DNA of 64,000 nucleotides from the NCBI GenBank assembly GCA_963711105.1, contig CAVQCV010000003.1, positions 39,051-103,050 of the forward strand. The letters run 5' to 3'. Shown here piece by piece: positions 11,837-63,899 of this stretch (position 1 is the stretch's first letter; each line of letters opens with the position of its first letter). The notes beneath the pieces were generated by a model. That model was not told where the DNA came from and ran no database searches. It saw only the letters and a list, made by a program, of their open reading frames with translations. The DNA is from an uncultured Chloroflexia bacterium (lineage in GTDB: Bacteria; Chloroflexota; Limnocylindria; Limnocylindrales; CSP1-4). The translations under genes and the position numbers were made by a program.

Positions 11837-12739
11837 TCAGTTCATGTTGAAGGTCTCGAAGAAGTGCTGGGGGTACATGGTGGCGCCGGGCTTGGCCATG
11901 ACTATGAGCATGTAGAAGCGCTGGTCGGCGACCCAGTACCTGGCGTATCCGTCCAGCGACATTTCCGTGAACTTGATCTCACGCGCCGGGCACGACTTGA
12001 AGGTCAAGTAGCGGGAGCCACTGATCTTGCCCCCGACAGCCGTGATGCCCTGATCGATGCTCTCGAGCAACGCGTTCGTGTCGCCATTCAATGCAGAGCT
12101 GGGCAGATCCATGGCGGCAGCCTCATAGACCGTTCCGCCGTCCAGCGACATGTACATCTTCAGGTTCAGGGACCCGTAGATCGTGTCCATCGACTGGCTC
12201 ATGGTCTGCGGGTCGCCGGATCCGGGGAACATGACGCTCCACGATCCATCCGGGCTGGTGAACTGATTCCACGAGCTCCGCGGCGATGCCTCGGCATCCG
12301 GCTGCCAGCTGTCCGCGCGGTTGAGCAGCAGGTACCCACCCACGACGGCAATTACCGCTACCAGGGCAAGGCCGACGAGGATCGGCAACTTGGATCGACG
12401 CGCGGGGGTCTGGACCCACGCCGGGCTCAGGTCGAGCCCGCAGTTCGCGCAGATTCGGTAGCCGGGGTACAGGGGCGCACCGCAACGCCAGCAATTGGTT
12501 GGCATGGCGCCCGGCGCGGGCGCCTGCGGAGCTGCGGGCATGCCCCACTGCGGCTCGCCCTGCGGAGCTGCGGGCATGCCCCACTGCGGCTCGCCCCGCG
12601 GAGCTGCGGGCATGCCCCACTGCGGCTCGCCCTGCGGCGCGGCCGGGGCCGGAAGCGGCGTCAGTTCAGACCCACAATTCCTGCAAGTCGACTCGTCGCC
12701 GGCGCGCGGTGTTCCGCACTTCGGGCACTGGCTGAGCAT
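11837..12739 (-). CDS. Membrane protein with two zinc-ribbon motifs and a 12-aa tandem repeat
   Basis: CPKCGT..CRNCG and CWRCG..CANCG zinc ribbons. Three copies of GEPQWGMPAAP(R/Q), then a TM helix (ILVGLALVAVIAVVGGYLLL) and an extracytoplasmic domain. Confidence 0.65.
   Translation of the reverse strand: MLSQCPKCGTPRAGDESTCRNCGSELTPLPAPAAPQGEPQWGMPAAPRGEPQWGMPAAPQGEPQWGMPAAPQAPAPGAMPTNCWRCGAPLYPGYRICANCGLDLSPAWVQTPARRSKLPILVGLALVAVIAVVGGYLLLNRADSWQPDAEASPRSSWNQFTSPDGSWSVMFPGSGDPQTMSQSMDTIYGSLNLKMYMSLDGGTVYEAAAMDLPSSALNGDTNALLESIDQGITAVGGKISGSRYLTFKSCPAREIKFTEMSLDGYARYWVADQRFYMLIVMAKPGATMYPQHFFETFNMN
12524..12640. repeat. 36-bp tandem repeat x3 (plus a partial copy) inside the zinc-ribbon gene
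   Basis: Unit ctgcggagctgcgggcatgccccactgcggctcgcc is repeated head-to-tail. It encodes the GEPQWGMPAAP repeats on the minus strand. Confidence 0.85.
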
Positions 12740-16557: not shown

Positions 16558-18957
16558 CTACCAGTCGGCGGGAGCGTCCCCGACTGCGCCGGGCGTCTGC
16601 TCCAGTGCGGCCGGTGGGTACACCGGCGCGGGGGTCGGGGCCGCGGTCGGGGGCGTGGTCGCGAGCGGAGCTCCGACCATGAGCAAACCGTCCACCTTGA
16701 CGTACCTGGAGTTCCAGGTGTCCTTGTGGATGACTTTGCCGTTGGCGTCGGTCACGGTCCGGGTGCGGGAGGTGCTGAAGCCCGCCGTCGGATACTCGGC
16801 TCGGGCCGTCTTGCCCGGCGCCAGGGACGTGGTGTAGCTCTTCTTGTCGGTGGCCTTGACGACGTTGGCCTTGAACTCGGGGCTGAGCTCGAACTTCCGA
16901 CCCGTCGGCAGGCTCCACAGCTGGATCGTGATGTGGCTGGTCCGGCCCGTGGTGGCCCAGGATCGGATGATGATCGGGTTGTCCGTGTCGTTGGTCCAGC
17001 GCATGTTGTAGGTCGTATAGCCGTTGGAGAAGACGGTCGCGTCCAGGCCGACCGGGTAACGACTGATGTAGTAGGCATGGGCGTGGCGCTCGTCGATTTG
17101 CATGCCGGCTCGCATCGCGGCGTTGAACGCCGTCGTGGATGCGGAGCAGATCCCGCCGCCCATGGCGCCGGTGTGGTCGCTCTTGCCGTTCTTGATCACG
17201 CCGCCCAGGGTGTACCCGTGGGCTCTGTCGATGGGGCCGACCGCGTTCAGGAAATTGAAGTGGCCCCGGGCCGGCACGAGCTGGCCGTTTAGGAGCGCCG
17301 CAGGGACGCGGATGTTGGCTCCGTTGCCGTTGCTGATGTCCGGATAGAAGGTCGTCGTCCACTGTCCGATGACCTTGATGCCCTGGAGGCTGTCCAGAGT
17401 GACGCTCGGCGGGACGGCCTGGGAGGCGAGTGCTACGCCCCCGGCCGGGGCGGTGCCACTGCCCCGGGCCTCGAGATAGCCGGCCAAATCCTGGGCCGAC
17501 GCGGCTGCGTCGATCGTGGTGCCGGGTTTGCCGCCCTTGAGGCCGACGGGATTGCTCTGCGAATCCCAGATGACCGAGGGCTCGACCGGTTTGGTGGCGA
17601 CGGAGGCCGCGAGCGTTGAGACGTAGGTCTCGATCATGCCCTCGTCGAGCGTCGGACCGTAGCTCCCGTCGGGGAAGCGCTGGAAGACAATCCAGGTCCG
17701 CACCGTATCCGCGTCGACGGTGAAGGTCTTGAGCGGAGCGGGGCTTTTCGAGGCGGCCGCGGTGGCGGCCAGGGTGCTGGGGGTCGGGCTGGCAGAGGCC
17801 GCAATCGCCGCAAGCTGGGCCGCGGTCGGGTCCCAGCTCAAGGTCGTTTCGACCGCCATTCGTTCAGCTTTGGCGATGGCTGCCTGCGCGTCGGCATTCG
17901 TCACGTCGGCCTGCACGGTGATCAGCGCCGCTCCGACTTCGAAGCTGGAAGTCGCGTCGGGCTGGGCGAGGCGGTCGACGATTGCCCGCTCGATGGCCGT
18001 CTCGTCGATCATTCGGCCGTCCATCGCCGGCGAAACGCTGAACACGCCGCCGAGATTCGTGACGGCGGCATTCGCGGGATAGATCCGGGTCGAATCGAAG
18101 AGGGCTCGGACCTTGAGGGCGACGGCCTCGGGATCGACGCCGACGGACAGCGGGACGTCATACCTGTTGATCGCGGCCCGGCCGATGTTGACAGCGTCGT
18201 CGAGGGCGTTGCCGGTGTGGCCGACGGCCATGGCTTGATCGGCCATGAACGCGGCGTCGGGCACGCGACCGGCGTCGGCAAACGAAATCGTGGCCGTGCC
18301 GGTGGGCGTGGCGATGGTTACTGTGCCCTGGCCTACATAGGCGTAGTCGGCCTCGATCCGGGCCACGAGCTGGTCGCGGGTCAGGCCCGAGGCGTCCAGA
18401 GAGCCGACATGAACCCCAGGGGCAGTCTTGTCCGAGTAGGCACTGTCGACGACGAGGATGACTGCCACGAAGATGGCCAGGCATGCAGCCACGCCGAGGC
18501 CGAAGGCAATCAGCAGCCAGCCTGCGGCGCGGACGCGGCTGTGGCTCCTGGGCAGGGCGGGATCGACGGCCGAGGCCCGGCCGCGGTGGCGTCGGAGCGG
18601 CAGCGACGGGCGCGGAAACCGCGGCAGCGACAGCGAGTGGGGGAGATGCGGGCGGTGACGCAAGGAAGTACCGCGGGCACCCTCAACGGCTTCGGCGGCT
18701 TCGGCGGCTTCGGCGGCTTCGGCGGCTTCGGCGGCTTCGGCGGCTTCGGCGGCTTCGGCGGCTTCGGCGGCTCCGGGGACCACGGCCTCCGACGCGGCCG
18801 GTTCTTCGCTCGTCGAGGCGGGTGGGCTGCCGGTGGTTTTGGCGCCGGACCCCGCCAGTTCCGGCGCGTCCATGCCCCATGACTCCCGCCAGACCTTCTC
18901 TCCGCCGAACATCTGGTCTACCAGATCGATTTCTTCCCTCGACATCCCGCCGCTCAC
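16558..18957 (-). CDS. VanW-family protein with a cytoplasmic (AAE)n repeat tail and a single TM anchor
   Basis: VanW-domain motif GGGICSASTTAFNAAMRAGMQIDERHAHAYYISRYPVGLDATV. TM segment WLLIAFGLGVAACLAIFVAVILVV. The N-terminus has AEAAEAAEAAEA.... The precise start is uncertain. Confidence 0.7.
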   Translation of the reverse strand: MSGGMSREEIDLVDQMFGGEKVWRESWGMDAPELAGSGAKTTGSPPASTSEEPAASEAVVPGAAEAAEAAEAAEAAEAAEAAEAAEAAEAVEGARGTSLRHRPHLPHSLSLPRFPRPSLPLRRHRGRASAVDPALPRSHSRVRAAGWLLIAFGLGVAACLAIFVAVILVVDSAYSDKTAPGVHVGSLDASGLTRDQLVARIEADYAYVGQGTVTIATPTGTATISFADAGRVPDAAFMADQAMAVGHTGNALDDAVNIGRAAINRYDVPLSVGVDPEAVALKVRALFDSTRIYPANAAVTNLGGVFSVSPAMDGRMIDETAIERAIVDRLAQPDATSSFEVGAALITVQADVTNADAQAAIAKAERMAVETTLSWDPTAAQLAAIAASASPTPSTLAATAAASKSPAPLKTFTVDADTVRTWIVFQRFPDGSYGPTLDEGMIETYVSTLAASVATKPVEPSVIWDSQSNPVGLKGGKPGTTIDAAASAQDLAGYLEARGSGTAPAGGVALASQAVPPSVTLDSLQGIKVIGQWTTTFYPDISNGNGANIRVPAALLNGQLVPARGHFNFLNAVGPIDRAHGYTLGGVIKNGKSDHTGAMGGGICSASTTAFNAAMRAGMQIDERHAHAYYISRYPVGLDATVFSNGYTTYNMRWTNDTDNPIIIRSWATTGRTSHITIQLWSLPTGRKFELSPEFKANVVKATDKKSYTTSLAPGKTARAEYPTAGFSTSRTRTVTDANGKVIHKDTWNSRYVKVDGLLMVGAPLATTPPTAAPTPAPVYPPAALEQTPGAVGDAPADW
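18690..18761. repeat. 9-bp tandem repeat (cttcggcgg) x8 inside the VanW-family gene
   Basis: Perfect head-to-tail copies. Encodes (AAE)n on the minus strand. Confidence 0.9.
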
Positions 18958-24012: not shown

Positions 24013-24480
24013 ATGACCACGCTCAAGCAGGTTGAGGACTTCCTGGCACTCAAGAGGATCGCCGTCGTGGGGGTTTCGCGGGACCCTAAGCACTTCAACC
24101 GGACGATGTGGGAGGAGTTCAGGCAGCGCCGCTACGACGCCGTACCGGTCAACCGCAACGCCACCGAGATCGACGGCCAGCCCTGCTACCCGAGCGTCAA
24201 GGACATCAAACCACCGGTCGAGGGCGCCCTCATCATGACCGACCGCGCCGACGCGGAACAGATCGTGCGCGAGTGCGCGGAGGCTGGCATCAAGCACGTC
24301 TGGCTGTACGGCGGTATGGCCCCGGGCGCTTCCTCCAAGGCCACGAAGGCGTTGTGCGACGAGAACGGGCTGGATCATGTCGACGGCCTCTGCCCGTACA
24401 TGTTCCTGGCCGGGGCGCCCGCCTTCCACGCGCCGCACCGGATGTGGAAGAAGCTCACGGGGTCCTATCCGAAGAATTAG
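24013..24480 (+). CDS. CoA-binding domain protein (YccU/CoA_binding_2-like)
   Basis: IAVVGVSRDPKHFNRTMWEEF...GIKHVWLYGGM layout typical of small CoA-binding Rossmann proteins. Confidence 0.7.
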   Translation: MTTLKQVEDFLALKRIAVVGVSRDPKHFNRTMWEEFRQRRYDAVPVNRNATEIDGQPCYPSVKDIKPPVEGALIMTDRADAEQIVRECAEAGIKHVWLYGGMAPGASSKATKALCDENGLDHVDGLCPYMFLAGAPAFHAPHRMWKKLTGSYPKN

Positions 24481-24493
24481 AGCTGCGTCGCTG

Positions 24494-24925
24494 GGGCTGC
24501 GTCGCGGGCGGCCGATAGCTTCGTTGGGCGTGCGCTCCTCGGCTCACAGGCCTCAAAGCCTGCTCGCCTCCGGTGCTCCGCCCGCCTCGCTCTCGGCTCG
24601 CCGGCTCCGCGAACGTAGTAGCGAGCGATAGGGCTGCGTCGCGGGCGGCCGATAGCTTCGTTGGGCGTGCGCTCCTCGGCTCACGCACCTTCAAGTGCGC
24701 TCGCCTCCGGTGCTCCGCCCGCCTCGCTCTCGGCTCGCCGGCTCCGCGAACGTAGTAGCGAGCGATAGGGCTGCGTCGCGGGCGGCCGATGGCTTCGTTG
24801 TCGCCGCGTCAGGCGAAGCCTGACGTGCGGTCCTCGCTCACAGGCGTCAAAGCCCGCTCGCTCCGGTCCTCACCTCCGACTCGGCCTCGACCCGCCGGCT
24901 CCGCGAATGCAATGGCGGGCGGCAG
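24494..24925. repeat. 137-bp intergenic element in three tandem copies (the third has a 20-bp hairpin insertion)
   Basis: Copies begin at 24494, 24631 and 24768. Each starts gggctgcgtcgcgggcggccgat(a/g)gcttcgttg and ends ccggctccgcgaa(c/t)g...agcg. The internal hairpin is caggc-ctcaaa-gcctg in copy 1, cgcac-cttcaa-gtgcg in copy 2, and caggc-gtcaaa-gcccg in copy 3. Copy 3 also carries a perfect 10-bp hairpin cgcgtcaggc-gaa-gcctgacgtgcg. A further copy lies at 59768. Confidence 0.75.
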
Positions 24926-24952
24926 GGATTGAGCGGCTGGTAACCTGACCGG

Positions 24953-25825
24953 GTGAGCGATTCGGTCGACATCCTCGAAGGTTCGGCCGGCCGAATCCTG
25001 CTCGGGGACAACCTGGCCGTCCTGGCCTCGCTGCCGGCCGACTGCGTCGATCTGATCTACGTCGATCCGCCCTTCAACACGGGCCGGCGTCAGACGCTGC
25101 GCCGGCTACGCACGGTTCACGACGAAGAGGCAGGCGATCGAACAGGGTTCGGCGGTCGGCGCTATCGGACGATCCAGCTCGGGTCGCAGAGCTACCTCGA
25201 CGTCCACGACGATTACCTCGACTTCCTGGAGCCGCGCATCGTCGAGATGCGGCGGGTGCTCCGGCCGACCGGTTCGTTCTACCTGCACCTGGACCCGCGC
25301 GAGGTCCATTACGCCCGGGTGCTGTGCGACGCGATATTCGGCCGGGACTGCTTCCTCAACGAGGTGATCTGGGCCTACGATTACGGCGCCCGAACGAAAC
25401 GGCGCTGGCCGGCCAAGCACGACAACATCCTGGTGTACGTGAAGGACCCGGAGCGCTATTTCTTCGACGCGGACGCGGTCGAGCGGATCCCCTACATGGC
25501 GCCCGGGCTGGTCGGCGCGGAGAAGGCGGCCCGGGGCAAGCTGCCGACCGATACGTGGTGGCAGACGATCGTGCCTCCCGGCGGCAAGGAGCGGACCGGC
25601 TATCCCACCCAGAAGCCCGTGGCCGTACTGCGTCGCGTCGTGGCGGCGTCGTGCCCGGCGGGCGGCGTCGTCGCGGACTTCTTTGCGGGCAGCGGCACCG
25701 CCGGCGCGGCGGCGCTGGAACTGGGACGGCGCTTCCTGCTCGTGGACTCGAACCCGGACGCGATCGCGGTGATGCGCCGGCGTTTGGGTGGCGCGGCGGG
25801 GGTCGAAGTCGTGGACCGAGGCTAG
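24953..25825 (+). CDS. Beta-class amino DNA methyltransferase (N6-adenine or N4-cytosine), apparently orphan
   Basis: Motif IV DPPF (LIYVDPPFNTG) lies near the N-terminus and motif I FxGxG (DFFAGSGTAGAAA) near the C-terminus. This is the beta-class permutation seen in CcrM, M.PvuII and M.RsrI. No restriction endonuclease gene is adjacent. GTG start. Confidence 0.8.
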   Translation: MSDSVDILEGSAGRILLGDNLAVLASLPADCVDLIYVDPPFNTGRRQTLRRLRTVHDEEAGDRTGFGGRRYRTIQLGSQSYLDVHDDYLDFLEPRIVEMRRVLRPTGSFYLHLDPREVHYARVLCDAIFGRDCFLNEVIWAYDYGARTKRRWPAKHDNILVYVKDPERYFFDADAVERIPYMAPGLVGAEKAARGKLPTDTWWQTIVPPGGKERTGYPTQKPVAVLRRVVAASCPAGGVVADFFAGSGTAGAAALELGRRFLLVDSNPDAIAVMRRRLGGAAGVEVVDRG

Positions 25826-41730: not shown

Positions 41731-42564
41731 ATGAGAGTCTCCGAACTCGCAAGTCGGGCCGGCATTGCCCCTTCCGCCGTTCGTTTCTATGAGGAGAGGG
41801 GCGTGCTGCCGGCCGCCGATCGGCGCGACAACGGATACCGGGAATACGGCGAGGATGCGCTCGCCAGGCTCAGGCTCGTCGTCACACTGCGGCGGCTCGG
41901 CCTTTCGCCGGTCGATGCCGGCAGGATGGCCCGGCTCTGCCTGGAGCACGGCGAGATCGACAGGGACCTCGCGCCGGTCGTTGCCGGCCAGCGGGTCGCG
42001 ATCGCCCGCCAGAGGGCCGATCTGGACCGGCTCGACTCTGAACTAACAGACCTCGAAATCACAATCCAGGCCGCCGGGCGTGCCCGGCGCCGCAAGGAGG
42101 GCAGCGCCATGTCTCCCGATCCCATCCGCGTCCTGTTCGTCTGCACTGGCAACTCCGCCCGGAGCCAGATCGCCGAGGCCCTGCTGCGCGACTTCGGCGG
42201 GGGCGACTTCGCCGCCTTCTCGGCCGGGACCGAGCCCAAGGGCGTGAACCCGTACACGGTCCGCGTCCTCGAGGAGATCGGCATCGACTGGTCGGCCGCC
42301 CGATCGAAGTCCGCGACGGAGTTCCTTGGCCAGCCGCTCGACTACGTGGTAACCGTCTGCGACCGAGCCCGCCAGAGCTGTCCAGTCTTCCCCGGCGAGC
42401 ACAACACGCTCCACTGGGGTCTCGAAGACCCGGCCGAGGTGGAAGGCGACGACGCGGCCAGGCTGGAGGCTTTCCGGCGCACCAGGACGGAGATCGCAGT
42501 GCGGCTTCGGCCGTTCGTCGAGCTGGCTCGAAAGGCCCGGAAGGAAGCGGCAACTCCGGCCTGA
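41731..42564 (+). CDS. MerR-family HTH regulator fused in frame to an LMW-PTP-type arsenate reductase (ArsC)
   Basis: N-terminus MRVSELASRAGIAPSAVRFYEERGVL (MerR HTH plus coiled-coil). C-terminus IRVLFVCTGNSARSQIAEALL...YVVTVCD (CX5R P-loop of thioredoxin-coupled ArsC). There is an internal ATG at 42109 after AGGAGGG. No stop separates the two halves. Confidence 0.7.
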   Translation: MRVSELASRAGIAPSAVRFYEERGVLPAADRRDNGYREYGEDALARLRLVVTLRRLGLSPVDAGRMARLCLEHGEIDRDLAPVVAGQRVAIARQRADLDRLDSELTDLEITIQAAGRARRRKEGSAMSPDPIRVLFVCTGNSARSQIAEALLRDFGGGDFAAFSAGTEPKGVNPYTVRVLEEIGIDWSAARSKSATEFLGQPLDYVVTVCDRARQSCPVFPGEHNTLHWGLEDPAEVEGDDAARLEAFRRTRTEIAVRLRPFVELARKARKEAATPA

Positions 42565-44951: not shown

Positions 44952-45140
44952 GGGCCCCGTCCCCGCGCCGCGCCCCCGCGCCGCGCCCCCGCGCCGCGCC
45001 CCCGCGCCGCGCCCCCGCGCCGCGTCCCCGCGCCGCGCCCCCGCGCCGCGCCCCCGCGCCGCGCCCCCGCGCCGCGCCCCCGCGCCGCGCCCCCGCCGCC
45101 CCCGCGCCGCGCCCCCGCCGCCCCCGCGCCGCGCCGCGGC
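44952..45140. repeat. 13-bp tandem repeat (gcgccgcgccccc) x about 14 between the sensor kinase and response regulator genes
   Basis: Near-perfect copies run from about 44965 to about 45140 and end 4 bp from the HK stop codon. No spacers, so this is not CRISPR. Confidence 0.9.
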
Positions 45141-51218: not shown

Positions 51219-53057
51219 CTAGTGCGGCGTCTGGCCGAGCAGGGTCAGGGCGGCCAGCAGCTGGCTGTCGCCCGACGAGTTCACGGTGGCGGCGGTCATC
51301 TTGTCGAGCTTGATCGGGTCTATCGGCTGGCCTCCGACCGGCAGCGCCACTGTCTGGTCCGGCTGGATGCCCACGCCGAAGATTCGGTGGCCCGAAGGCG
51401 TGAGCCAGTCCGCCACGCCGAGCAGGATGGCCGAACCGTCCGACAGAACGAACGGCTGGAGGACGGTGCCGGTGCCCACGGTGGTCTGGCCGACGATCTT
51501 GCCGCGCAGGTTGTCCTGCACCGCGCCGGCCACGATTTCAGCCGCGCTGGCGGTGTTGTGATCCACGAGGACGACCATGGGCAGGCTCGTGGCGGTCCAG
51601 GAGGTGTCAACGGTGATGCTGGTTCGCCGGCCCGAGGAGTTCTCCTCCTGGTAGATGGTGCCGGTGCTCAGGAATTCGCTGGCCACGTTGCGAGCTTCGC
51701 TGGCCAGCCCGCCCGGGTTGCCGCGCAGGTCCAGGACGATGCCGGTGGCGCCGGCTTTGGTAGCCCCGTCGATGGCTGTCTTGATCTGGTCGCCCGCGCC
51801 GTCGGCGAACTCGAACAGGGTGATGTCCGCCACTGTCGTGCCGGGCACCATGCCCCAGTCGACCAGCGGAGCCTTGATGGTCGCGCGCGTGACCGTTATG
51901 TCCACGGGCACGGTGGAGCCGGCATGGAGGATCGTCAGGGTAACCTGCGTTCCGGGCGTTCCTCGGACCTGGGCGGCCAGCTGGTCGAAGGTCTGGCCCG
52001 CGACCGATTTGCCGTTGACGGCGGTTATCTCGTCGCCGGTGAGAATGCCGGCCTGCTCCGCCGGCGACCCTGAGATCACCCGATCTATCACGAACGCGCC
52101 GCTGTCCGTGGTCAGGTAGACGCCGATGCCGGCGACGCTGCCGTTCAGCTGGCTGGTCATGTCGTTGAATTCCTGGGGCGTCAGGAAGCGGGTGTGGTTT
52201 GTGTCGCCGAGCGCGTCCACCATTCCCCGGATCGAGCCGTAGAGCAGCTGCTGGTCGGTAATCGACGCGCGGCCGACGTACTGGGACTTGATGTCCCGAA
52301 GCGCTTCTTCGTACACCGAGAAGCCCTGGAGCGGGCCGGAGGTCTGCGTTTGCGGCTGCGCGCTCACGACGACGGATCGATCCACGACCATGCCCAACGA
52401 GAACGCGATCAGGGCGGCGACGACGACGCCGGCGATGGCGGGCAGGCGACTCCTGCGGCGCCCGGACGGCTCGGGATACAGGTTCGAGAGCGACTGCCAG
52501 GGCTGCGGCCCGGGCGTCCAGCCGGACTGCTGGGCGGGCGGCCAGGAAGGTTGCTGGGCGGGCGGCCAGGAAGGTTGCGGGTTCTGGAAGCCGGGCTGCT
52601 GAGCGGGCGGCCAGGAAGGTGCGGGACCGGCGCCGGGGGGCGTGCCCCAGCCGGACTGCTGAGCGGGCGGCCAGGAAGGCTGCGGGCTCTGGAAGCCGGG
52701 CTGCTGAGCGGGCGGCCAGGAAGGGGCGGGACCGGGGCCGGAGGGCGTGCCCCAGCCGGGCTGCTGAGCAGGTGGCCAGTAGGGGTTCTGCGGATTCTGG
52801 AAGCCGGGGCCGGTGGGCGCCTGCCAGCCCGACTGCTGCCCGGACGGCCAGAATGGATTGTCCGCCCCGGGCGCCGGTCCCCACGGCCGTGCGTCCGTCG
52901 CGTTCGGGTCGGCCGCCTGAGCGTTCGCCTCCGCATCCGAGCCCGAAGGCAGTGCCTGATCGCCGTCGGCCGGGCCTCCGGATGGCCCGTCCGCCGGATT
53001 CGGTTCGTTGTCGTCGATATTCACTGCCGCTCTCGCTTTCCTGGTTGGTACGCACAT
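51219..53057 (-). CDS. S41 family C-terminal processing peptidase with a PDZ domain and a cytoplasmic Pro/Gln-rich repeat N-terminus
   Basis: N-terminal about 190 aa of degenerate repeats (WPPAQQPGWGTPSGPGPAPS, WPPAQQPGFQSPQPS). TM LPAIAGVVVAALIAFSLGMVV. PDZ GDEITAVNGKSVAGQTF. Catalytic region GIVLDLRGNPGGL. The 688-aa ORF 51607..53673 is rejected. Confidence 0.75.
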   Translation of the reverse strand: MCVPTRKARAAVNIDDNEPNPADGPSGGPADGDQALPSGSDAEANAQAADPNATDARPWGPAPGADNPFWPSGQQSGWQAPTGPGFQNPQNPYWPPAQQPGWGTPSGPGPAPSWPPAQQPGFQSPQPSWPPAQQSGWGTPPGAGPAPSWPPAQQPGFQNPQPSWPPAQQPSWPPAQQSGWTPGPQPWQSLSNLYPEPSGRRRSRLPAIAGVVVAALIAFSLGMVVDRSVVVSAQPQTQTSGPLQGFSVYEEALRDIKSQYVGRASITDQQLLYGSIRGMVDALGDTNHTRFLTPQEFNDMTSQLNGSVAGIGVYLTTDSGAFVIDRVISGSPAEQAGILTGDEITAVNGKSVAGQTFDQLAAQVRGTPGTQVTLTILHAGSTVPVDITVTRATIKAPLVDWGMVPGTTVADITLFEFADGAGDQIKTAIDGATKAGATGIVLDLRGNPGGLASEARNVASEFLSTGTIYQEENSSGRRTSITVDTSWTATSLPMVVLVDHNTASAAEIVAGAVQDNLRGKIVGQTTVGTGTVLQPFVLSDGSAILLGVADWLTPSGHRIFGVGIQPDQTVALPVGGQPIDPIKLDKMTAATVNSSGDSQLLAALTLLGQTPH

Positions 53058-54186: not shown

Positions 54187-54261
54187 GGCGGGGTGGAGCA
54201 GCGGCAGCTCGTCGGGCTCATAACCCGAAGGTCGGCGGTTCGAATCCGTCCCCCGCAACCA
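54187..54261 (+). tRNA. Initiator tRNA-fMet (anticodon CAU)
   Basis: Near-identical to E. coli tRNA-fMet through the anticodon arm. Anticodon stem UCGGG/CCCGA has the three G-C pairs diagnostic of initiators. Loop CUCAUAA. Mismatched 1:72 pair (G1/A72). T-arm GGCGG-UUCGAAU-CCGUC. CCA encoded. Confidence 0.85.
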
Positions 54262-54274
54262 ACGCCGAAACCTG

Positions 54275-54299
54275 AAGCCCGGCCATCTCGGCCGGGTTT
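54275..54299 (+). terminator. Terminator hairpin after tRNA-fMet, followed by the shared 15-mer TGATGTACGCCCGGC
   Basis: aagcccggcc-atct-cggccgggttt, then c gTGATGTACGCCCGGC (54302-54316). The same hairpin-plus-15-mer arrangement recurs at 59502-59544. Confidence 0.5.
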
Positions 54300-54782
54300 C
54301 GTGATGTACGCCCGGCATGGGCGGCAGCCCGGAGGTGAAAGTCCTCTGCAGGAGGCGGTGGTGCCAACTGCTAGCCAAAGGCAACGGCGCCACGGTGAGG
54401 TGGGGTCGGAAGGAAGCCCGAGGCGAAGCTCTGACCCGAGGAACACGAACCGCATACAAGGCCTGGCAGCCTGGATGAGCCGGCATCACACGGTGAAGTC
54501 CGTCACCACCAAGGGGCTGTCAGGTAAATGCGGCGGGGCTAGAGCGAAGGCGGCCGTTCTTATCCGGGGAGACCTGATCGGGTGTTGGATTCGTCCGACC
54601 GTCGCCCCCGCGAGGTGGCGCCGGACCGGTCAGGAGTCAGCAGCGGCCATAGTACCGGCGGGGATCGATGACGCCGAGAAGGGCCAAACGTCAGTCCGAG
54701 GGTCGAACCGGACGGACTCGCGATCGGCGCATCGACCGCAGCCACTCCATCCCTGCGATGGACCTGCCGTTGAGGCGAGAGG

Positions 54783-56180
54783 GTGAAGCCCTCAGACGCA
54801 GCGGCAGAGCGCAGCGCCGACCCGGCGTCTCCCGAATCCAGCCCTCACCCCGCCCGAGCAGATGATCTCTGGGAGGTCTTCCTCTCGCGAGAGAACCTGG
54901 CCCGGGCGTTGCGGCGCGTCGAGGCCAATCGCGGCGCTCCGGGTCCCGACGGCATGAGCACGGCTGAGCTTCGGCCGTATCTCAAGACCGCCTGGCCCAG
55001 TCTCCGCGAATCACTCGACGCTGGCACATACCGACCCAGCCCAGCCAGACGGGTGACGATCCCCAAGCCCGGTGGCGGTGAGCGTGAGTTAGGCGTGCCG
55101 ACGGTGATCGACCGCTTTCTCCAGCAAGCGTTGAGCCAGGTTCTCTCTCCGGTCTTCGAACCAACGTTCTCGGATCGAAGCTTCGGCTTCCGACCCGGAC
55201 GGAGCGCTCACCAGGCGGTGGAAGCCGCACGGCGGGCAATCGAGGCCGGGCAGGGCTGGGTCGTCGATGTCGATCTGGACCGGTTCTTCGACCGGGTCCA
55301 GCATGATGCCCTCATGGCCCGCGTGGCCAGAAGGGTCGGCGACCGACGGATCTTGAAGCTGATCCGCCGTTACCTCGACGCAGATGTCATGGTCGGCGGC
55401 GTGAAGGTCGCGACAGAAGAGGGCACCCCGCAAGGGTCTCCGCTCTCACCGCTGCTCGCGAACGTCATGCTCGACGATCTCGATCACGAGCTGGAAAGAC
55501 GGGGCCATGCCTTCGTCCGTTATGCCGACGACCTCCGGGTCTACGTGGCAAGCGAGCGAGCGGCTCAACGGGTGCTCGAAGGCATCACGGTCTTCGTGGA
55601 GCGGCGGCTCCATCTCAAAGTGAACCCGGCCAAGAGTGGCGTATCCCCGGCGACCGTCCGGGGTCTGCTCGGCTTCGGCTTCTTTGGGCGCGACGGGCGG
55701 ATCAGAGTCAGGCTCGGACCAAAGACGAAGACTCGTCTGCGGGCCCGATTACGCGAACTCACCGACCGCCACCGCTCGATTGCCATGCCGATCAGGATCG
55801 CGCAGCTCAACCGGTTCATCGCAGGCTGGACCGCCTACTTCGCCCTGGCCGAGACGCCCTCGGTGTTCGAGGAGTTCGACGAGTGGCTCCGTCGCAGATT
55901 GCGGCAGGTGCGCTGGAAGGAGTGGAAGACTTGTGGCGCCAAGCGCCGCAACCTGCGATCGCTCGGCATCCCTGACGATCTGGCTCGCCAGTGGGCGGCC
56001 AGCCGGAAGGGCTACTGGCGGCTGGCGGCCTCCCCTCCGCTCAGTTGGGCCATGCCGATCAGCTACTGGACCGACCTTGGTCTTCTGCCGATCGGTGTTC
56101 GTGTCCGTCGTCTCCGGGAGCACTGGCGAACCGCCGGATGCGGACCCGCATGTCCGGTGGTGTGGGAGGGGCCGGGTTGA
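54783..56180 (+). CDS. Group II intron-type reverse transcriptase/maturase (RT domains 0-7 plus X/maturase, no En/HNH domain)
   Basis: IPKPGGGERELGVPTVIDRFLQQA, FGFRPGRSAHQAV, WVVDVDLDRFFDRVQHDALM, GTPQGSPLSPLLANVMLDDLD, FVRYADDLRVY (YADD), maturase RFIAGWTAYF...WLRRRLRQVRWKEWK. GTG start in the track; the true start is uncertain. Confidence 0.85.
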   Translation: MKPSDAAAERSADPASPESSPHPARADDLWEVFLSRENLARALRRVEANRGAPGPDGMSTAELRPYLKTAWPSLRESLDAGTYRPSPARRVTIPKPGGGERELGVPTVIDRFLQQALSQVLSPVFEPTFSDRSFGFRPGRSAHQAVEAARRAIEAGQGWVVDVDLDRFFDRVQHDALMARVARRVGDRRILKLIRRYLDADVMVGGVKVATEEGTPQGSPLSPLLANVMLDDLDHELERRGHAFVRYADDLRVYVASERAAQRVLEGITVFVERRLHLKVNPAKSGVSPATVRGLLGFGFFGRDGRIRVRLGPKTKTRLRARLRELTDRHRSIAMPIRIAQLNRFIAGWTAYFALAETPSVFEEFDEWLRRRLRQVRWKEWKTCGAKRRNLRSLGIPDDLARQWAASRKGYWRLAASPPLSWAMPISYWTDLGLLPIGVRVRRLREHWRTAGCGPACPVVWEGPG

Positions 56181-56217
56181 CCTCGGCCCCTACCCGATTC
56201 CCGCCGGCGCGCATACC

Positions 56218-59193: not shown

Positions 59194-59481
59194 ATGGCTT
59201 ATGTGATCGCCGAGCCCTGCGTCGATACGCGGGATCGCGCCTGCGTGTCCGTCTGCCCCGTGGATTGCATCCACGAGGAGGAGAGCGCCGACCGCACCCT
59301 CTACATCGACCCGAACGAGTGCATCGATTGCGGCGCCTGCGAGCCCGAGTGCCCGGTCAACGCCATCTTCACCGAGGATGCGCTGCCGCCCGAGTGGGCC
59401 AAGTACACCGAGGTCAACGCCCTCTGGTATCAGGACAAGGCCGCGGCCCGGGCGATGGTGGACGAGCTCAAGCCCGCCTGA
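59194..59481 (+). CDS. 7Fe ferredoxin (FdxA-type [3Fe-4S][4Fe-4S])
   Basis: CVDTRDRACVSVCPVDC and CIDCGACEPECP cysteine clusters. AGGAGAGAA RBS. Confidence 0.85.
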   Translation: MAYVIAEPCVDTRDRACVSVCPVDCIHEEESADRTLYIDPNECIDCGACEPECPVNAIFTEDALPPEWAKYTEVNALWYQDKAAARAMVDELKPA

Positions 59482-59501
59482 TCCCGACTCAACGGAACAT
59501 C

Positions 59502-59557
59502 AAGCGCCCGGCCCAAAGCCGGGCGCTTCTGATGTACGCCCGGCCCCAGGCCGGGCG
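59502..59557 (+). terminator. Tandem terminator hairpins after the ferredoxin gene, containing the shared 15-mer TGATGTACGCCCGGC
   Basis: aagcgcccggc-ccaaa-gccgggcgctt (59502-59528), then cTGATGTACGCCCGGC (59530-59544), which runs into a second hairpin cgcccggcc-cca-ggccgggcg ending at 59557. Confidence 0.5.
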
Positions 59558-59767
59558 CTTGTGTCTCCCCGGTTTGCGGCTGGAAAATCGGCAAACTATG
59601 AGCCGTCTCCTCCCGGTTTCAGGATTACTTCAGCCTGCGGGCCCAATATCCGGGTCAGCTCTCCTCCTCCCTCCGCTGTACGGGCGAGACGAGTCAAAAC
59701 AGCCGGCCGCTTGATCCTCCCTCCCAAGCGACCGGCTCTCGTCTTTCTGGGGAGAAGCGCGCGCCTC

Positions 59768-59951
59768 GGGCTGCGTCGCGGGCGGCCAATGGCTTCGTTG
59801 TCGCCTGCGATGCTCGCTCACAGGCGTCAAAGCCTGCTCGCTCCGCTCCTCGGCTCCGCCTCGCCCTCGGCTCGCCGGCTCCGCGAATGCAATAGCGGTG
59901 GGCGGGGCTGCGTCGCCGGGCGGCCGATGGGGCTGCGTCGCGGGGCGGGGG
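59768..59951. repeat. Fourth copy of the 137-bp intergenic element plus two partial 5' copies
   Basis: gggctgcgtcgcgggcggccaatggcttcgttg...gctcacaggcgtcaaagcctgctcgc...ccggctccgcgaatgcaatagcgg is most similar to copy 3 at 24768. It is followed by ggggctgcgtcgccgggcggccgatgg and ggctgcgtcgcggggcggggg fragments. Confidence 0.7.
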
Positions 59952-60017
59952 ACCTCCACGGGATATTCGCGCGGAAACGGCCGATATGCCGGTTCAACCG
60001 CGCCTATACTCGGCCGC

Positions 60018-60941
60018 ATGTCGCCCCTTTCGTCCAAAACCGTCGCCACCATCGGCTCCGGTGTCATGGCCGAGGCCATCATCGCCGGCCTGCTGCGGGG
60101 CAAGCTCGTGGCTGCGAGCCAGATCGTCGGCAGCGAGCCGCGCCAGGAACGGCGCGACGAGCTCGTCAAGCAGTACGGCGTGCGCATGGTCGCCTCGAAC
60201 CTCGAGGCGGCGAGCCAGGCCGACGTGATCCTGCTGTCGGTCAAGCCGCAGACGCTGACCAAGGTCGGGCACGAGCTGGGCGGCCGGCTGCGCCCCAACC
60301 AGCTGGTCGTCTCGATCGTCGCCGGCGCGACGTGCAAGGTTCTGACGTCGCTGCTCGACCACCGCCAGGTCGTGCGCAGCATGCCCAACACCCCGGCCCA
60401 GATCGGGCGCGGGATCACCGTCTGGTACGCCACGCCCGAAGCCACCGAAGAGCAGTGCGACCAGGCCAGGGTGCTTCTCCAGGCGCTCGGCACGGACCTC
60501 CGCGTCGAGGACGAGCGTTTCGTGGAGATGGCCACCGCGGTCAGCGGGACGGGGCCGGCGTACGTGTTCCTGGTCATGGAAGCGCTGATCGACGCTGCCG
60601 TCCATCTCGGCTTTCCGCGCCACGTCGCCCACGACCTGGTGATCGAGACGCTGGAAGGCAGCACGGCCTTCGCCAAGGCCACGGCCCAGCACCCGGCGGT
60701 CCTGCGAAACATGGTCACGTCGCCGGGCGGCACCAGCGCGGCGGCGATCCACGAGCTGGAGTCCGGGCGGCTGCGAACGGTTCTTTCGGAAGCGGTCTGG
60801 GCCTCCTACCGGCGCACGGTCGAGCTCGGGGCCGATCTCGAGAAGGGGCTCGGCCTCAACGAAGGGGCGCCCGAGGATGGGGCCGACGGCCGAGCCGGCA
60901 ACGGGGCGAGGTCCGGCGCGGGTCGAAGGATCCCTCGCTAG
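60018..60941 (+). CDS. proC: Pyrroline-5-carboxylate reductase
   Basis: N-terminal NADP fold VATIGSGVMAEAIIAGLL. SVKPQ motif. C-terminal dimerisation domain GTGPAYVFLVMEALIDAAVHLG...SPGGTSAAAIHELE. Start at the ATG at 60018. C-terminal Gly/Ala/Arg-rich extension. Confidence 0.8.
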   Translation: MSPLSSKTVATIGSGVMAEAIIAGLLRGKLVAASQIVGSEPRQERRDELVKQYGVRMVASNLEAASQADVILLSVKPQTLTKVGHELGGRLRPNQLVVSIVAGATCKVLTSLLDHRQVVRSMPNTPAQIGRGITVWYATPEATEEQCDQARVLLQALGTDLRVEDERFVEMATAVSGTGPAYVFLVMEALIDAAVHLGFPRHVAHDLVIETLEGSTAFAKATAQHPAVLRNMVTSPGGTSAAAIHELESGRLRTVLSEAVWASYRRTVELGADLEKGLGLNEGAPEDGADGRAGNGARSGAGRRIPR

Positions 60942-61815: not shown

Positions 61816-63899
61816 CCCTGCCTGGTGGCGCTGGTGAGGGACCGCGACGCGCCGACGCCACGTCCGACGAGACGGCCCGAGCGCTGACGCCGCGCGAAGT
61901 CGCCGAGGCGGCGCGAGCGACCCAGGAGGCGAGTCGCACCCGGAAGGCGTCCCGCGACGGCCTCACCGTGGAGCAGGCCGCGGCGATCGAATGGCCGCGC
62001 GAGTTCCGTCTCTCCCCGGATGGGCGCCGGGTGGCGTTCACGGCGGAGGCGGCCGGAGCCCGGCAGATCTTCGTGCTGTCACCCCGCGGCGGCTACCCCG
62101 AGCAGCTCACCGCCACCGAACGATCGGTCTCGGACCCGCAGTGGTCGCCGGACGGCCGGCGGCTGGCCTTCGTCCGCGACGACGCGATCTGGATGATCGA
62201 CGTCGAGGGCTCGCACCAGGCCCTGGTGACGCAGCATCCGGCGGGCAACCGATCGCCCCGCTGGTGCCCGGACGGCCACCAGATCGGCTTCATCTCACGG
62301 CGGCGCGGCTGGGACCAGTTGTGGCTGATCGACGCCCCGGTACCCCGGCGCGGCCGTCCGGCGACCCGACCCAGGGCCCCGGAAGCGGTGCCCATGACGG
62401 CCCCGGGCGTGGACGTGGACGAGTTCGTGTGGTCGCCGGACGGCCGCACCCTCGCCGTCACCTCCCAGCGCGGCCCGGATCTGCTCACGTCGCAAATCCA
62501 CCTGGTCGACGCCGTCACTTCCGTCGAGCGTCAGATCGCCGGTGAGGGGGCCTGGGAAACCGGGCCGCGCTGGCTGCCGGACGGCTCGGGCCTGCTCTTC
62601 GTCTCGGATCGCGACGGCTGGTTCCAGGTGGTCCACGTGGAGATCGGGAGCGGCGAGCGTCGCGTTCTCACGTCCGGCCGGCTCGACCACGGTGAGCCGG
62701 GCGGCGGCTGGGGCTACGTTCCCCTGCCTTCGCCGGACGGCCGGCGTTTCGTCCACGTCGAGGTTCACGACGGCCTCGTGGATCTGGTCGTCCGCGAGCT
62801 GGACGCCTCCGTGTCTGACGCATCGTCCACGTCGGCCACGTCGGCCACGTCGGCCCCGTCGGCCCCGTCGGCCCCGTCGGCCCCGTCGGCCCCGTCGGCC
62901 GCTCTGGTCAACCCGTTCGAAGGCGTGTGGCAGGCCATCGGCTGGCTGCCTGACGGTTCCGCGATCGCGGCCATCGGCCGCGGCTATCGCAACCCCGACG
63001 ACCTGTGGCTGCTGCCCATCGGCGAAGCTGCGGACCAGGGCGCGCGGCCGCGGCAGCTGACGATGTCGCTCCCCGCCGTCGTGGACACCTCCCGGTTCGC
63101 GGTTCCGCGCCGTATCCACTTCGAGGCGCGCGATGGCCGTCGGATCGAGGCCACGCTCTATCTGCCGGCGTCCGCCGCCGGCGACGACCCGGTTCGCGTT
63201 CCGTGTGTCGTACATTCTCACGGTGGCCCCTCTTCGTCGGCCCTGCGAGATTGGCTGCCCTTCCGCCAGCTCGTCGTCGAAGCCGGCATGGCCTTCCTGT
63301 CCGTGGACTTCCGAGGTTCGACGGGCTACGGCCGCGAGTTCCGCTGGTCCAACAGGGGCGAGTGGGGCCACGCCGACGCCCACGACGTCATCGACGCGGC
63401 CGGCTGGGCGGCGTCCCAGCCATGGTGCGACGGGCGCCTGGCCCACTACGGGGCTTCGTACGGCGGCTACATGACGCTGTGCGTCCTGACCGAGGAGCCG
63501 TCGCTGTGGAAGGCCGGCATCGACCTGTACGGCGACTCGGACATCGCCGAGAGCTACCGCCACGGCGACCGGCTGGGCCGGATGGACCTGGAACGGATGA
63601 TGGGCAGACCGGAGGATGCCGCCGCCGCCGACGCCTACCGGCGCGGGTCGCCGCTGTTCCGGGCCGAGCGCATCGAGGCCCCGCTCCTCATCCTTCACGG
63701 CCGCAAGGACAAGCGCGTCGTGCCGCTCATGACCGAGAAGATGGTCGAAGCATTGGAGATCGAAGGCAAGCACCACCAGGTTCACTGGTACGCGGAGGAG
63801 CCGCACGGCTGGCAGAAGCGGGAGAACCGGCGCGACGCCTGGAAGCGGTGCCTGGATTTCCTTAAGCGATACTTGCTCGAACAGACTGACGAGGATTAG
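61812..63899 (+). CDS. S9-family serine peptidase (beta-propeller plus prolyl-oligopeptidase-type alpha/beta hydrolase)
   Basis: N-terminal WD40-like propeller repeats (SPDGRRVAF, WSPDGRRLAF, WCPDGHQIGF, WSPDGRTLAV, WLPDGSGLLF). Catalytic GASYGGY nucleophile elbow with the usual D and H of S9 downstream. Start at the ATG at 61812 (MTLPGG) overlapping the PIG-L stop. Contains a (SAT/SAP)n insertion. Confidence 0.75.
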   Translation: MTLPGGAGEGPRRADATSDETARALTPREVAEAARATQEASRTRKASRDGLTVEQAAAIEWPREFRLSPDGRRVAFTAEAAGARQIFVLSPRGGYPEQLTATERSVSDPQWSPDGRRLAFVRDDAIWMIDVEGSHQALVTQHPAGNRSPRWCPDGHQIGFISRRRGWDQLWLIDAPVPRRGRPATRPRAPEAVPMTAPGVDVDEFVWSPDGRTLAVTSQRGPDLLTSQIHLVDAVTSVERQIAGEGAWETGPRWLPDGSGLLFVSDRDGWFQVVHVEIGSGERRVLTSGRLDHGEPGGGWGYVPLPSPDGRRFVHVEVHDGLVDLVVRELDASVSDASSTSATSATSAPSAPSAPSAPSAPSAALVNPFEGVWQAIGWLPDGSAIAAIGRGYRNPDDLWLLPIGEAADQGARPRQLTMSLPAVVDTSRFAVPRRIHFEARDGRRIEATLYLPASAAGDDPVRVPCVVHSHGGPSSSALRDWLPFRQLVVEAGMAFLSVDFRGSTGYGREFRWSNRGEWGHADAHDVIDAAGWAASQPWCDGRLAHYGASYGGYMTLCVLTEEPSLWKAGIDLYGDSDIAESYRHGDRLGRMDLERMMGRPEDAAAADAYRRGSPLFRAERIEAPLLILHGRKDKRVVPLMTEKMVEALEIEGKHHQVHWYAEEPHGWQKRENRRDAWKRCLDFLKRYLLEQTDED
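62831..62902. repeat. 9-bp tandem repeat (gtcggcc[ac]c) x8 inside the S9 peptidase gene
   Basis: Encodes SATSATSAPSAPSAPSAPSAPSA in a propeller loop. Confidence 0.85.

Follow-up and report, generated by a model that had tools for sequence, protein, structure and literature searches.

An imperfectly palindromic, non-coding repeat element in Limnocylindrales (Chloroflexota), probably of a lineage-specific interspersed family

The 64-kb stretch of DNA analyzed here (contig CAVQCV010000003.1), termed the window, comes from a metagenome-assembled genome (MAG) of the order Limnocylindrales of Chloroflexota. It carries a head-to-tail array of three intergenic units, called c1, c2, and c3, at positions 24494-24925, and a solo copy of the same element, c4, near 59.8 kb. 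A search with Pfam places the array between a CoA-binding gene (CoA_binding_2, 24013-24480) and a DNA methyltransferase gene (N6_N4_Mtase, 24953-25825), and c4 between genes for a 4Fe-4S ferredoxin (59194-59481) and P5C reductase (proC, 60018-60941). All four copies lie on the + strand. A previous reading of the nucleotide sequence, here called the sequence-only reading, had named the same gene contexts and had described a 137-bp tandem triplicate with a distant fourth copy. It viewed the units as structured elements resembling repetitive extragenic palindromic (REP) sequences or miniature inverted-repeat transposable elements (MITEs), or as small RNAs, of a family that it did not recognize. 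All results reported below rest on the window and on loci from relatives and metagenomes, which carry L-numbers.

The array and the solo copy

Tandem Repeats Finder detects a 137-bp period at 24494-24800 (2.2 copies, 94% matches, score 551). When the unit is compared with the window by blastn, the array is seen to consist of three units and the fourth copy is recovered, in agreement with the earlier description. Unit c1 spans 24494-24630 (core 24495-24621) and c2 spans 24631-24767; the two are 94.2% identical (E-value 1e-57). Unit c3 (24768-24925, with an approximate 3' end; core 24769-24914) is 73% identical to the unit, and c4 (59768 to ~59897 in the blastn alignment; full copy 59768-59894) is 86% identical. 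A covariance model scores c1 through c4 at 126.7, 124.1, 119.7, and 138.4 bits, respectively. The first 20 nt of the unit, GGGCTGCGTCGCGGGCGGCC, have four exact occurrences, versus 0.15 expected with three mismatches allowed. A 13-nt left-end fragment (AGCTGCGTCGCTG, 24481-24493, + strand), which can be read directly 3' of the TAG stop codon of the CoA-binding gene, precedes the array.

The differences between c1 and c2 are confined to an apical hairpin, which reads CAGGC-CTCAAA-GCCTG in c1 (24547-24562) and CGCAC-CTTCAA-GTGCG in c2 (24684-24699). A position-by-position comparison finds exactly eight of them, at 24548-24550, 24554-24555, and 24559-24561. Three fall in each arm of the hairpin and two in the loop, and pairing is retained, just as had been noticed previously. 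The sequence-only reading took this swap as a sign of selection on the hairpin. Pairing is indeed maintained across copies of the element, as described below, but stepwise compensation is not what this pair of units appears to record. Because the eight changes are packed into 14 nt, with none in the remaining 123 nt, the difference is best read from the aligned units as a patch replaced from another family variant, by gene conversion or template switching.

A third hairpin variant, CAGGC-GTCAAA-GCC(C/T)G, can be read in both c3 (24841-24856) and c4 (59821-59836), again as previously reported. The c3 version ends in GCCCG, so that its stem has one mismatched pair, which is A.C on the + strand and G.U on the - strand. 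A hairpin of 20 nt is inserted in c3 at 24806-24825 (+ strand). This insertion had been described as a perfect 10-bp hairpin; its stem in fact has nine pairs, one of which is G.T.

The methyltransferase gene downstream of the array has more than 100 homologues that are 82-100% identical and retain stable synteny. Most of these are unnamed metagenome proteins, and the few that are named come from Limnocylindrales. The closest named homologues of both the methyltransferase and ProC belong to 'Candidatus Limnocylindrales bacterium' MAGs of Chloroflexota. The presence of the methyltransferase on more than 100 contigs at 82-89% identity indicates a conserved core gene that was not recently acquired. 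No restriction enzyme gene adjoins it, the neighboring gene encoding a DUF5671 membrane protein, and it behaves like a core, CcrM-style orphan methylase.

Copy c4 is followed by two truncated left ends in direct orientation (59905-59929 and 59930-59948, + strand), detected by blastn and by reading of the sequence. They are probably the remains of internally deleted units, comparable to the third unit of the related locus L080 (9859-9921), which is described below. On its 5' side, c4 adjoins a terminator-like conserved non-coding region, which separates it from the ferredoxin gene, whereas proC lies on its 3' side. This stretch of ~170 nt (window 59590-59760; L080 9455-9590; L083 9855-9975) is kept in relatives whose proC genes are only 87-91% identical. 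It contains the nested stems GACGAGA/TCTCGTC and GCCGGYCGC/GCGACCGGC, CUCCUCC-type loops, and a U-rich tail at its end. It resembles either a small RNA or a structured 3' end that includes an intrinsic terminator, and Rfam has no match to it.

Two other features of this spacer were observed. Directly 3' of the ferredoxin gene, at 59500-59562, is a tandem pair of near-identical, GC-rich, terminator-like hairpins, formed by AAGCGCCCGGC...GCCGGGCGCTT and then by CGCCCGGCC...GGCCGGGCG, after which comes CTTGTGTCTC. In relatives, the interval between the ferredoxin gene and proC (L080 8373-10001; L083 8723-10001) includes a Peripla_BP_2 gene of ~298 amino acids. This gene for a periplasmic binding protein is missing from the window (59481-60018), and its absence accounts for the long spacer seen there.

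Further copies and turnover at orthologous loci

Seven distinct copies were found beyond those of the window, bringing the total to 11 copies in five unrelated intergenic contexts. In locus L062, whose methyltransferase is 97% identical and whose flanking DNA is 91-94% identical to that of the window, the orthologous spacer holds 3.15 tandem 137-bp units, that is, three units and an 18-nt left end. Loci L080, L081, and L082 (ProC 91% identical) have two units 5' of proC and an internally deleted third. Their period is 127-129 nt, and at the junction GCAATT is followed by GGCTGCG. A scan of metagenomes with a pattern consisting of the left end, 80-110 nt, and the right end yielded three exact matches, all of them single copies. 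The L065 copy lies 3' of a gene and of a terminator-like hairpin, one is upstream of a shikimate-dehydrogenase-like gene (L066), and one is downstream of a membrane-protein gene (L067). With these additional copies in relatives and in unrelated contexts, and with the covariation and the Rfam result described below, the earlier proposal of a REP/MITE-like structured family holds.

Several other candidates were rejected as copies. With filters off, covariance model R1 gives a single extra match in the window (42190-42311, 23.6 bits), which resides inside a phosphatase-like open reading frame (ORF), and the model finds no new copies in 167 kb of related loci. A scan of a genome collection produced 61 single 20-mer left-end matches in unrelated high-GC genomes, which are attributed to chance because none extends past 20-24 nt in blastn comparisons. 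A near-match to L048 obtained with nhmmer is inside a coding region, and eight single 18-mer matches in viral contigs show no extended similarity. Plasmids and phages gave no match by blastn.

The number and state of units differ among orthologous loci. The spacer between the CoA-binding and methyltransferase genes contains three units in the window and in L062. The same spacer has only a degenerate left half in L076 (methyltransferase 89% identical), and in L064 it is a bare 75-bp spacer that lacks the element. In L063 (9303-9914) and L077 (9294-9911), and also in L078 and L079, a gene for a DUF4389 membrane protein is present instead of the array; the methyltransferases of these relatives are 87-88% identical. 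This spacer is a hotspot of gain and loss. Upstream of proC, the window has one unit and two stubs, L080 has two units and the deleted third, and L083 has only a remnant.

Units appear to be exchanged between loci as well. The copies divide into subfamily A, comprising c1, c2, and the L062 units, and subfamily B, comprising c3, c4, L067, and the L080 unit called L080B (87-91% mutual identity). Unit c3 shares 90% identity with the distant c4 but only 72-77% with its neighbors c1 and c2. The unit at the same position in the relative, L062c, belongs to subfamily A and is 73% identical to c3, which means that a whole unit was replaced while the flanks diverged by 6-9%. At the one locus pair compared, c4 and L080B are 89% identical, versus 80-83% for the adjacent proC DNA. 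On these sequence comparisons, either the element changes at a lower rate than coding DNA does or its copies homogenize one another.

Repeats are easily misassembled, and the source of the window is a MAG. Moreover, three independent metagenome contigs, L081 (1-102), L082 (1-121), and the P0121 contig, begin inside or just downstream of the array upstream of proC, which indicates that the repeat breaks short-read assemblies of this lineage. One might therefore ask whether the arrays are assembly artefacts, or merely a local duplication of the variable-number tandem repeat (VNTR) kind with no family behind it. We regard this as extremely improbable, given that independent assemblies of ENA and JGI samples have arrays at these two loci whose unit sequences differ. 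Copies also occur in five unrelated contexts, and one array mixes the two subfamilies.

Structure, covariation, and strand

The junction in the arrays of L080-L082 defines a core element of ~127 nt, so that the 137-bp unit of the window corresponds to this core plus a linker of ~10 nt. The left module of 31 nt, GGCTGCGTCGCGGGCGGCCGATAGCTTCGTT, shows no or almost no variation in any copy, and this holds also for copies located through synteny; for the three metagenome copies, the search pattern itself forced both ends to be invariant. The right module, CGCCGGCTCCGCGAAYGYARY, pairs with the left module to form a terminal stem of ~20-25 bp. Between the two modules, the interior is variable and pyrimidine-rich, and it contains the 5-bp apical hairpin. 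In the consensus that RNAalifold predicts from an alignment (A4) of the 11 distinct copies, an outer helix of 15 pairs is followed by a second helix of 6 pairs and then by the interior and apical hairpin. The first two helices are paired in 92-100% of cells and constitute imperfect terminal inverted repeats with bulges.

The element is non-coding, in that only short, non-conserved ORFs cross the core and each 137-nt repeat puts the next unit in a different reading frame. Rfam 15 yields no gathering-level match in or near the elements. When the cutoff is relaxed to E <= 10 over 24400-25000, the best E-values are 8.7 and 9.7, far from threshold, so the family is one that Rfam does not recognize either. 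Two other classes of repeated element were considered and rejected. CRISPR arrays do not fit, as the stretches between modules are mutually homologous (70-100%) and no cas genes occur among the neighbors examined. Integron attC sites do not fit because GTTGGGC is found only in subfamily A, with GTTGTCG in subfamily B, and thus is not conserved. In addition, the flanking core genes are in stable synteny, and the units directly adjoin one another, with no intervening cassette.

The predicted structure is supported by covariation. Across the 11 copies, 97.9% of cells in the consensus structure are standard pairs, compared with 24-49% when partners are slid by one to three columns. Both sides of a pair have changed in 17 cells versus 5.9 in shuffled alignments, a count reached by none of 500 shuffles. 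Three of the five pairs in the apical stem covary. This stem exists in four fully complementary forms: CAGGC/GCCTG, CGCAC/GTGCG, CGGGC/GCCCG (L066), and CGGAC/GTCCG (L080A). The sequence-only reading had allowed that more copies might reveal the hairpin changes not to be compensatory, and the opposite is observed. A separate pair in the long stem, 23/122, changes from A-U to G-C in four copies. The outer helix says nothing either way, because it does not vary. These data show that pairing is maintained. That RNA is the functional form does not follow from them.

Pairing could in principle be preserved by mutation rather than by function, if template switching within a quasi-palindrome and short-patch gene conversion copied matched arms from one place to another. 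The clustered differences between c1 and c2 have this character, as does the exchange of whole units between loci. The c2-type hairpin occurs in all three L062 units. Furthermore, the 20 nt inserted in c3 also form a hairpin, which reuses the CAGGC/GCCTG arms and a GCGTCA string of the apical hairpin and could have arisen by a template switch. These processes are compatible with the repeat-family interpretation developed below, and are probably part of its mechanism. As a replacement for it they are highly improbable, because they leave unexplained both the conservation of the element above that of its coding flanks and the covarying pair in the long stem.

The position of the element relative to genes bears on whether it acts as a transcript. 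At each of the five loci the element runs in the direction of the upstream gene, and also of the downstream gene where that gene is known. At L067, and in three orthologous versions of one locus, its start lies 0-2 nt past a TAG stop codon. The uniform orientation is suggestive only, as it could reflect the direction either of transcription or of replication. A conserved -10-like TAACCT is found 6-7 nt before the GTG or ATG start codon of the methyltransferase gene in the window (24926-24955), L062, L064, and L076. Similarly, a -10-like TATACT is located 6-8 nt before the ATG of proC in the window (59995-60020), L080, and L083. No Shine-Dalgarno sequence occurs between these boxes and the start codons. 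This arrangement suggests that the methyltransferase gene and proC have promoters just 3' of the elements and are expressed from leaderless transcripts.

Evidence on the functional strand is contradictory. At the tip of the outer helix, two variable pairs alternate between G-C and G.U on the + strand, but would be C.A mismatches on the - strand. Conversely, folding z scores are more negative for the - strand in 10 of the 11 copies, with medians of approximately -2.9 (-) and -0.75 (+). Counts of G.U cells over the union of both consensus structures (21 for + and 18 for -) favor neither strand.

Some of these observations could be explained if the element were a functional structured RNA. It might be a cis element, such as a hairpin that stabilizes 3' ends, a terminator or insulator, or an RNase III site between cistrons, or it might be the gene of a multicopy small RNA; selection would then act on the fold of the RNA. 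The covariation of apical pairs and of one long-stem pair is consistent with this possibility, and so are the co-orientation, the starts close to stop codons, the wobble pairs that hold on the sense strand only, and the conservation relative to adjoining coding DNA. Nevertheless, we judge a structured RNA unlikely. Besides the better folding of the antisense strand and the lack of any Rfam match even at the relaxed cutoff, the flanking genes are functionally unrelated, and hence the element is not a regulator of the riboswitch type. The units contain no sigma-70-like promoter and no convincing U-tract terminator. Given the terminator-like hairpins upstream of c4 and the L065 copy, and the apparent promoter that proC has of its own, these copies may escape transcription with both neighbors. 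Finally, the element is lost or degenerate at orthologous loci of close relatives, with no visible compensation.

The end of the array is ~25 nt upstream of the TAACCT box, so the last unit occupies the -35 region of the methyltransferase promoter. This abutment would also be expected if the 31-nt module were a DNA-level site, bound by a host protein (a nucleoid-associated protein, an iteron-like or regulatory factor, or a recombinase) that tunes the downstream gene. The near-invariance of the left module in full copies, and its retention in part or in full by truncated ones, agree with such a role. Duplex binding sites, however, do not require a paired apical hairpin whose sequence is free to vary, and the covariation points instead to a folded single strand. 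None of the copies has a gene for a candidate binding protein next to it, the flanking genes have unrelated functions, and relatives lack the element at the same promoters. A protein-binding site therefore seems very unlikely to be the principal identity of the element.

Proposed origin and comparison with known systems

The element most probably represents a lineage-specific family of non-coding, imperfectly palindromic interspersed repeats in Limnocylindrales, of the same general kind as REPINs (paired, inverted REP sequences), enterobacterial repetitive intergenic consensus (ERIC) elements, and palindromic MITEs. We hold this interpretation with moderate confidence. Copies of the element have reached at least five unrelated intergenic sites, and dispersal would be rare. 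Comparison of loci shows that, at a given site, arrays of the element and its short linker grow and shrink, trade units, and lose internal segments. Likely causes of this turnover are unequal recombination, slippage during replication, and gene conversion among copies of the family, which would generate head-to-tail arrays that end in a truncated unit. The element stays more conserved than adjoining coding DNA at the locus pair compared, and the covariation indicates that the long stem and apical hairpin stay paired while the sequence changes. We infer that the folded single strand matters, which could mean single-stranded DNA recognized by a trans-acting transposase or recombinase, or else a transcript. 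Effects on flanking genes, such as the provision of a hairpin at the 3' end of a transcript or displacement of the methyltransferase -35 region, would be by-products.

Several observations weigh against a repeat family of this kind. Neither end behaves as a REP-type palindrome by itself: the left module alone folds with -5.0 kcal/mol (z = +0.5 relative to shuffled sequences), and the right module has z = +1.1. The ends are thus not classical REP palindromes. No autonomous partner was seen among the window ORFs scanned with Pfam, which cover part of the window, or at the loci of relatives. No target-site duplication or common target is apparent at c4, L065, L066, and L067, where the exact ends are uncertain. 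A junction in which TAG is followed by RGCTGCG occurs at the CoA-binding locus and at L067, but is missing at the other three loci. Copy number may be low, as there are two loci in 64 kb and none in ~100 kb of the relatives' flanks, and the metagenome scan returned only its three exact matches. The uniform orientation at five loci is not obviously expected of purely selfish DNA, and conservation above that of coding flanks could equally mean a function for the host. The element is accordingly not classified as a REPIN or as a MITE, because the end modules are not palindromes on their own, no target duplication is visible, and neither a REP-associated tyrosine transposase (RAYT) gene nor a parent insertion sequence was seen in the regions scanned.

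The conservation, the invariant left module, the uniform orientation, and the replacement of the hairpin as a cassette raise the further idea that the element is under purifying selection, as a system new to Chloroflexota that either benefits the host or replicates in an autonomous-like manner, although we consider this quite unlikely. It could be a REPIN-like replicator that depends on a domesticated, single-copy transposase, in which case the enzyme could recognize the 31-nt module on the folded single strand. Another form would be a structured RNA whose apical hairpin exists as a few interchangeable alleles, passed from copy to copy through short-patch conversion.

Among the window ORFs scanned with Pfam, the sole gene of a mobile element encodes the reverse transcriptase of a group II intron. 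This intron, in the region 54187-56198, is ~130 nt downstream of a tRNA gene (54187-54258). Rfam detects its domains at 54389-54684 and 56129-56198, and the reverse transcriptase/maturase ORF spans 54783-56180 (RVT_1, GIIM). A link between the intron and the repeat family was rejected, as blastn reveals no sequence similarity between the intron and the units.

The window also contains other tandem repeats. A 13-nt unit, CCCCGCGCCGCGC, is present in 14 copies at 44961-45135, and a 36-nt unit is present in 3.2 copies at 12523-12637. The remaining repeats are inside ORFs: 9-nt units at 18687-18776 in a VanW-domain ORF, 9-nt units at 62830-62900 in a Peptidase_S9 ORF, and a 105-nt unit at 52552-52808 (2.4 copies) in a Peptidase_S41/PDZ ORF.

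Palindromic interspersed repeats, including REP sequences and REPINs, ERIC elements, and Correia elements, are well studied in Proteobacteria. A library search, judged by titles and abstracts, gave no description of such repeats in Limnocylindria. A repeat family in this class would extend the phylogenetic range of palindromic interspersed repeats. Its arrays could serve as VNTR-like markers for strain typing of an abundant, uncultivated lineage of soil and freshwater, and the family would account for contigs that repeatedly break when these genomes are assembled from metagenomes. It also offers a small, tractable case of concerted evolution, in which units are swapped between loci while the hairpin stays paired. 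Discovery of a cognate transposase or of an RNA function would make the family a useful comparison for the REPIN-RAYT system.

The REPINs of Pseudomonas fluorescens SBW25 have conserved inverted ends and a variable spacer in which compensatory changes are common (PMC3116915). Their tandem clusters include flanking sequence, and the largest consists of four REPINs and one extra REP (PMC3116915). The repeats described here resemble REPINs (Bertels & Rainey 2011, PMC3116915) in being non-coding, extragenic, and on the order of 100 nt in length, and in having two inverted, conserved end modules that pair into a long hairpin around a variable middle with compensatory changes. They likewise form tandem clusters of near-identical units that include flanks and end in an extra half element, as seen in the window array, the L062 array, and the L080 array. 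Truncated singlets that can be read as decayed elements, and persistence at orthologous loci, are further similarities to REPINs (PMC3116915). The end modules, however, unlike those of REPINs, do not fold as significant palindromes, and they are only ~70% complementary to each other, with bulges. There is no sequence similarity, and the hosts differ, being Chloroflexota here and Proteobacteria for REPINs. The Pfam scan, which covered part of the 64 kb, revealed no RAYT gene.

With regard to the features of MITEs, the element is small and non-coding and has terminal inverted repeats, albeit imperfect ones, but shows no target-site duplication at the four sites compared. Correia elements, or NEMIS, are palindromic MITEs of Neisseria with a duplicated TA target and nearly perfect inverted repeats of 26 bp. 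Like the element described here, they are ~100-150 bp long and intergenic and have terminal inverted repeats. Co-transcription with neighboring genes, and a long hairpin that is a potential RNase III substrate, may be shared features too. In contrast to Correia elements, neither a target duplication nor a consistent target is seen for the Limnocylindrales repeats.

ERIC elements, also called IRUs, are ~127-bp imperfect palindromes in transcribed intergenic regions of Enterobacteriaceae and Vibrio, and some carry internal insertions. The core of our element is nearly equal in size and is also an imperfect palindrome that forms a long stem-loop. Both are found between co-directional genes near stop codons, have no coding capacity, and have no known dedicated transposase. 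The internal insertions in some ERIC copies are reminiscent of the 20 nt inserted in c3. The two families share no sequence similarity, and ERIC elements, which belong to another phylum, are usually single and occur in both orientations.

MIRUs, which are intergenic VNTRs of mycobacteria, are 46-101 bp long, are not long palindromes, and have been proposed to contain short coupled ORFs. As with MIRUs, our units form head-to-tail arrays between co-directional genes, in the same orientation as transcription. They are also dispersed at several loci, with two in the window for this one genome and five contexts overall, and their copy number varies between close relatives. They differ in that the 137-bp period is not a multiple of three and no conserved ORF is present. 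Of these systems, ERIC elements are the closest analogue of a single unit, and the mycobacterial MIRU loci that of the arrays.

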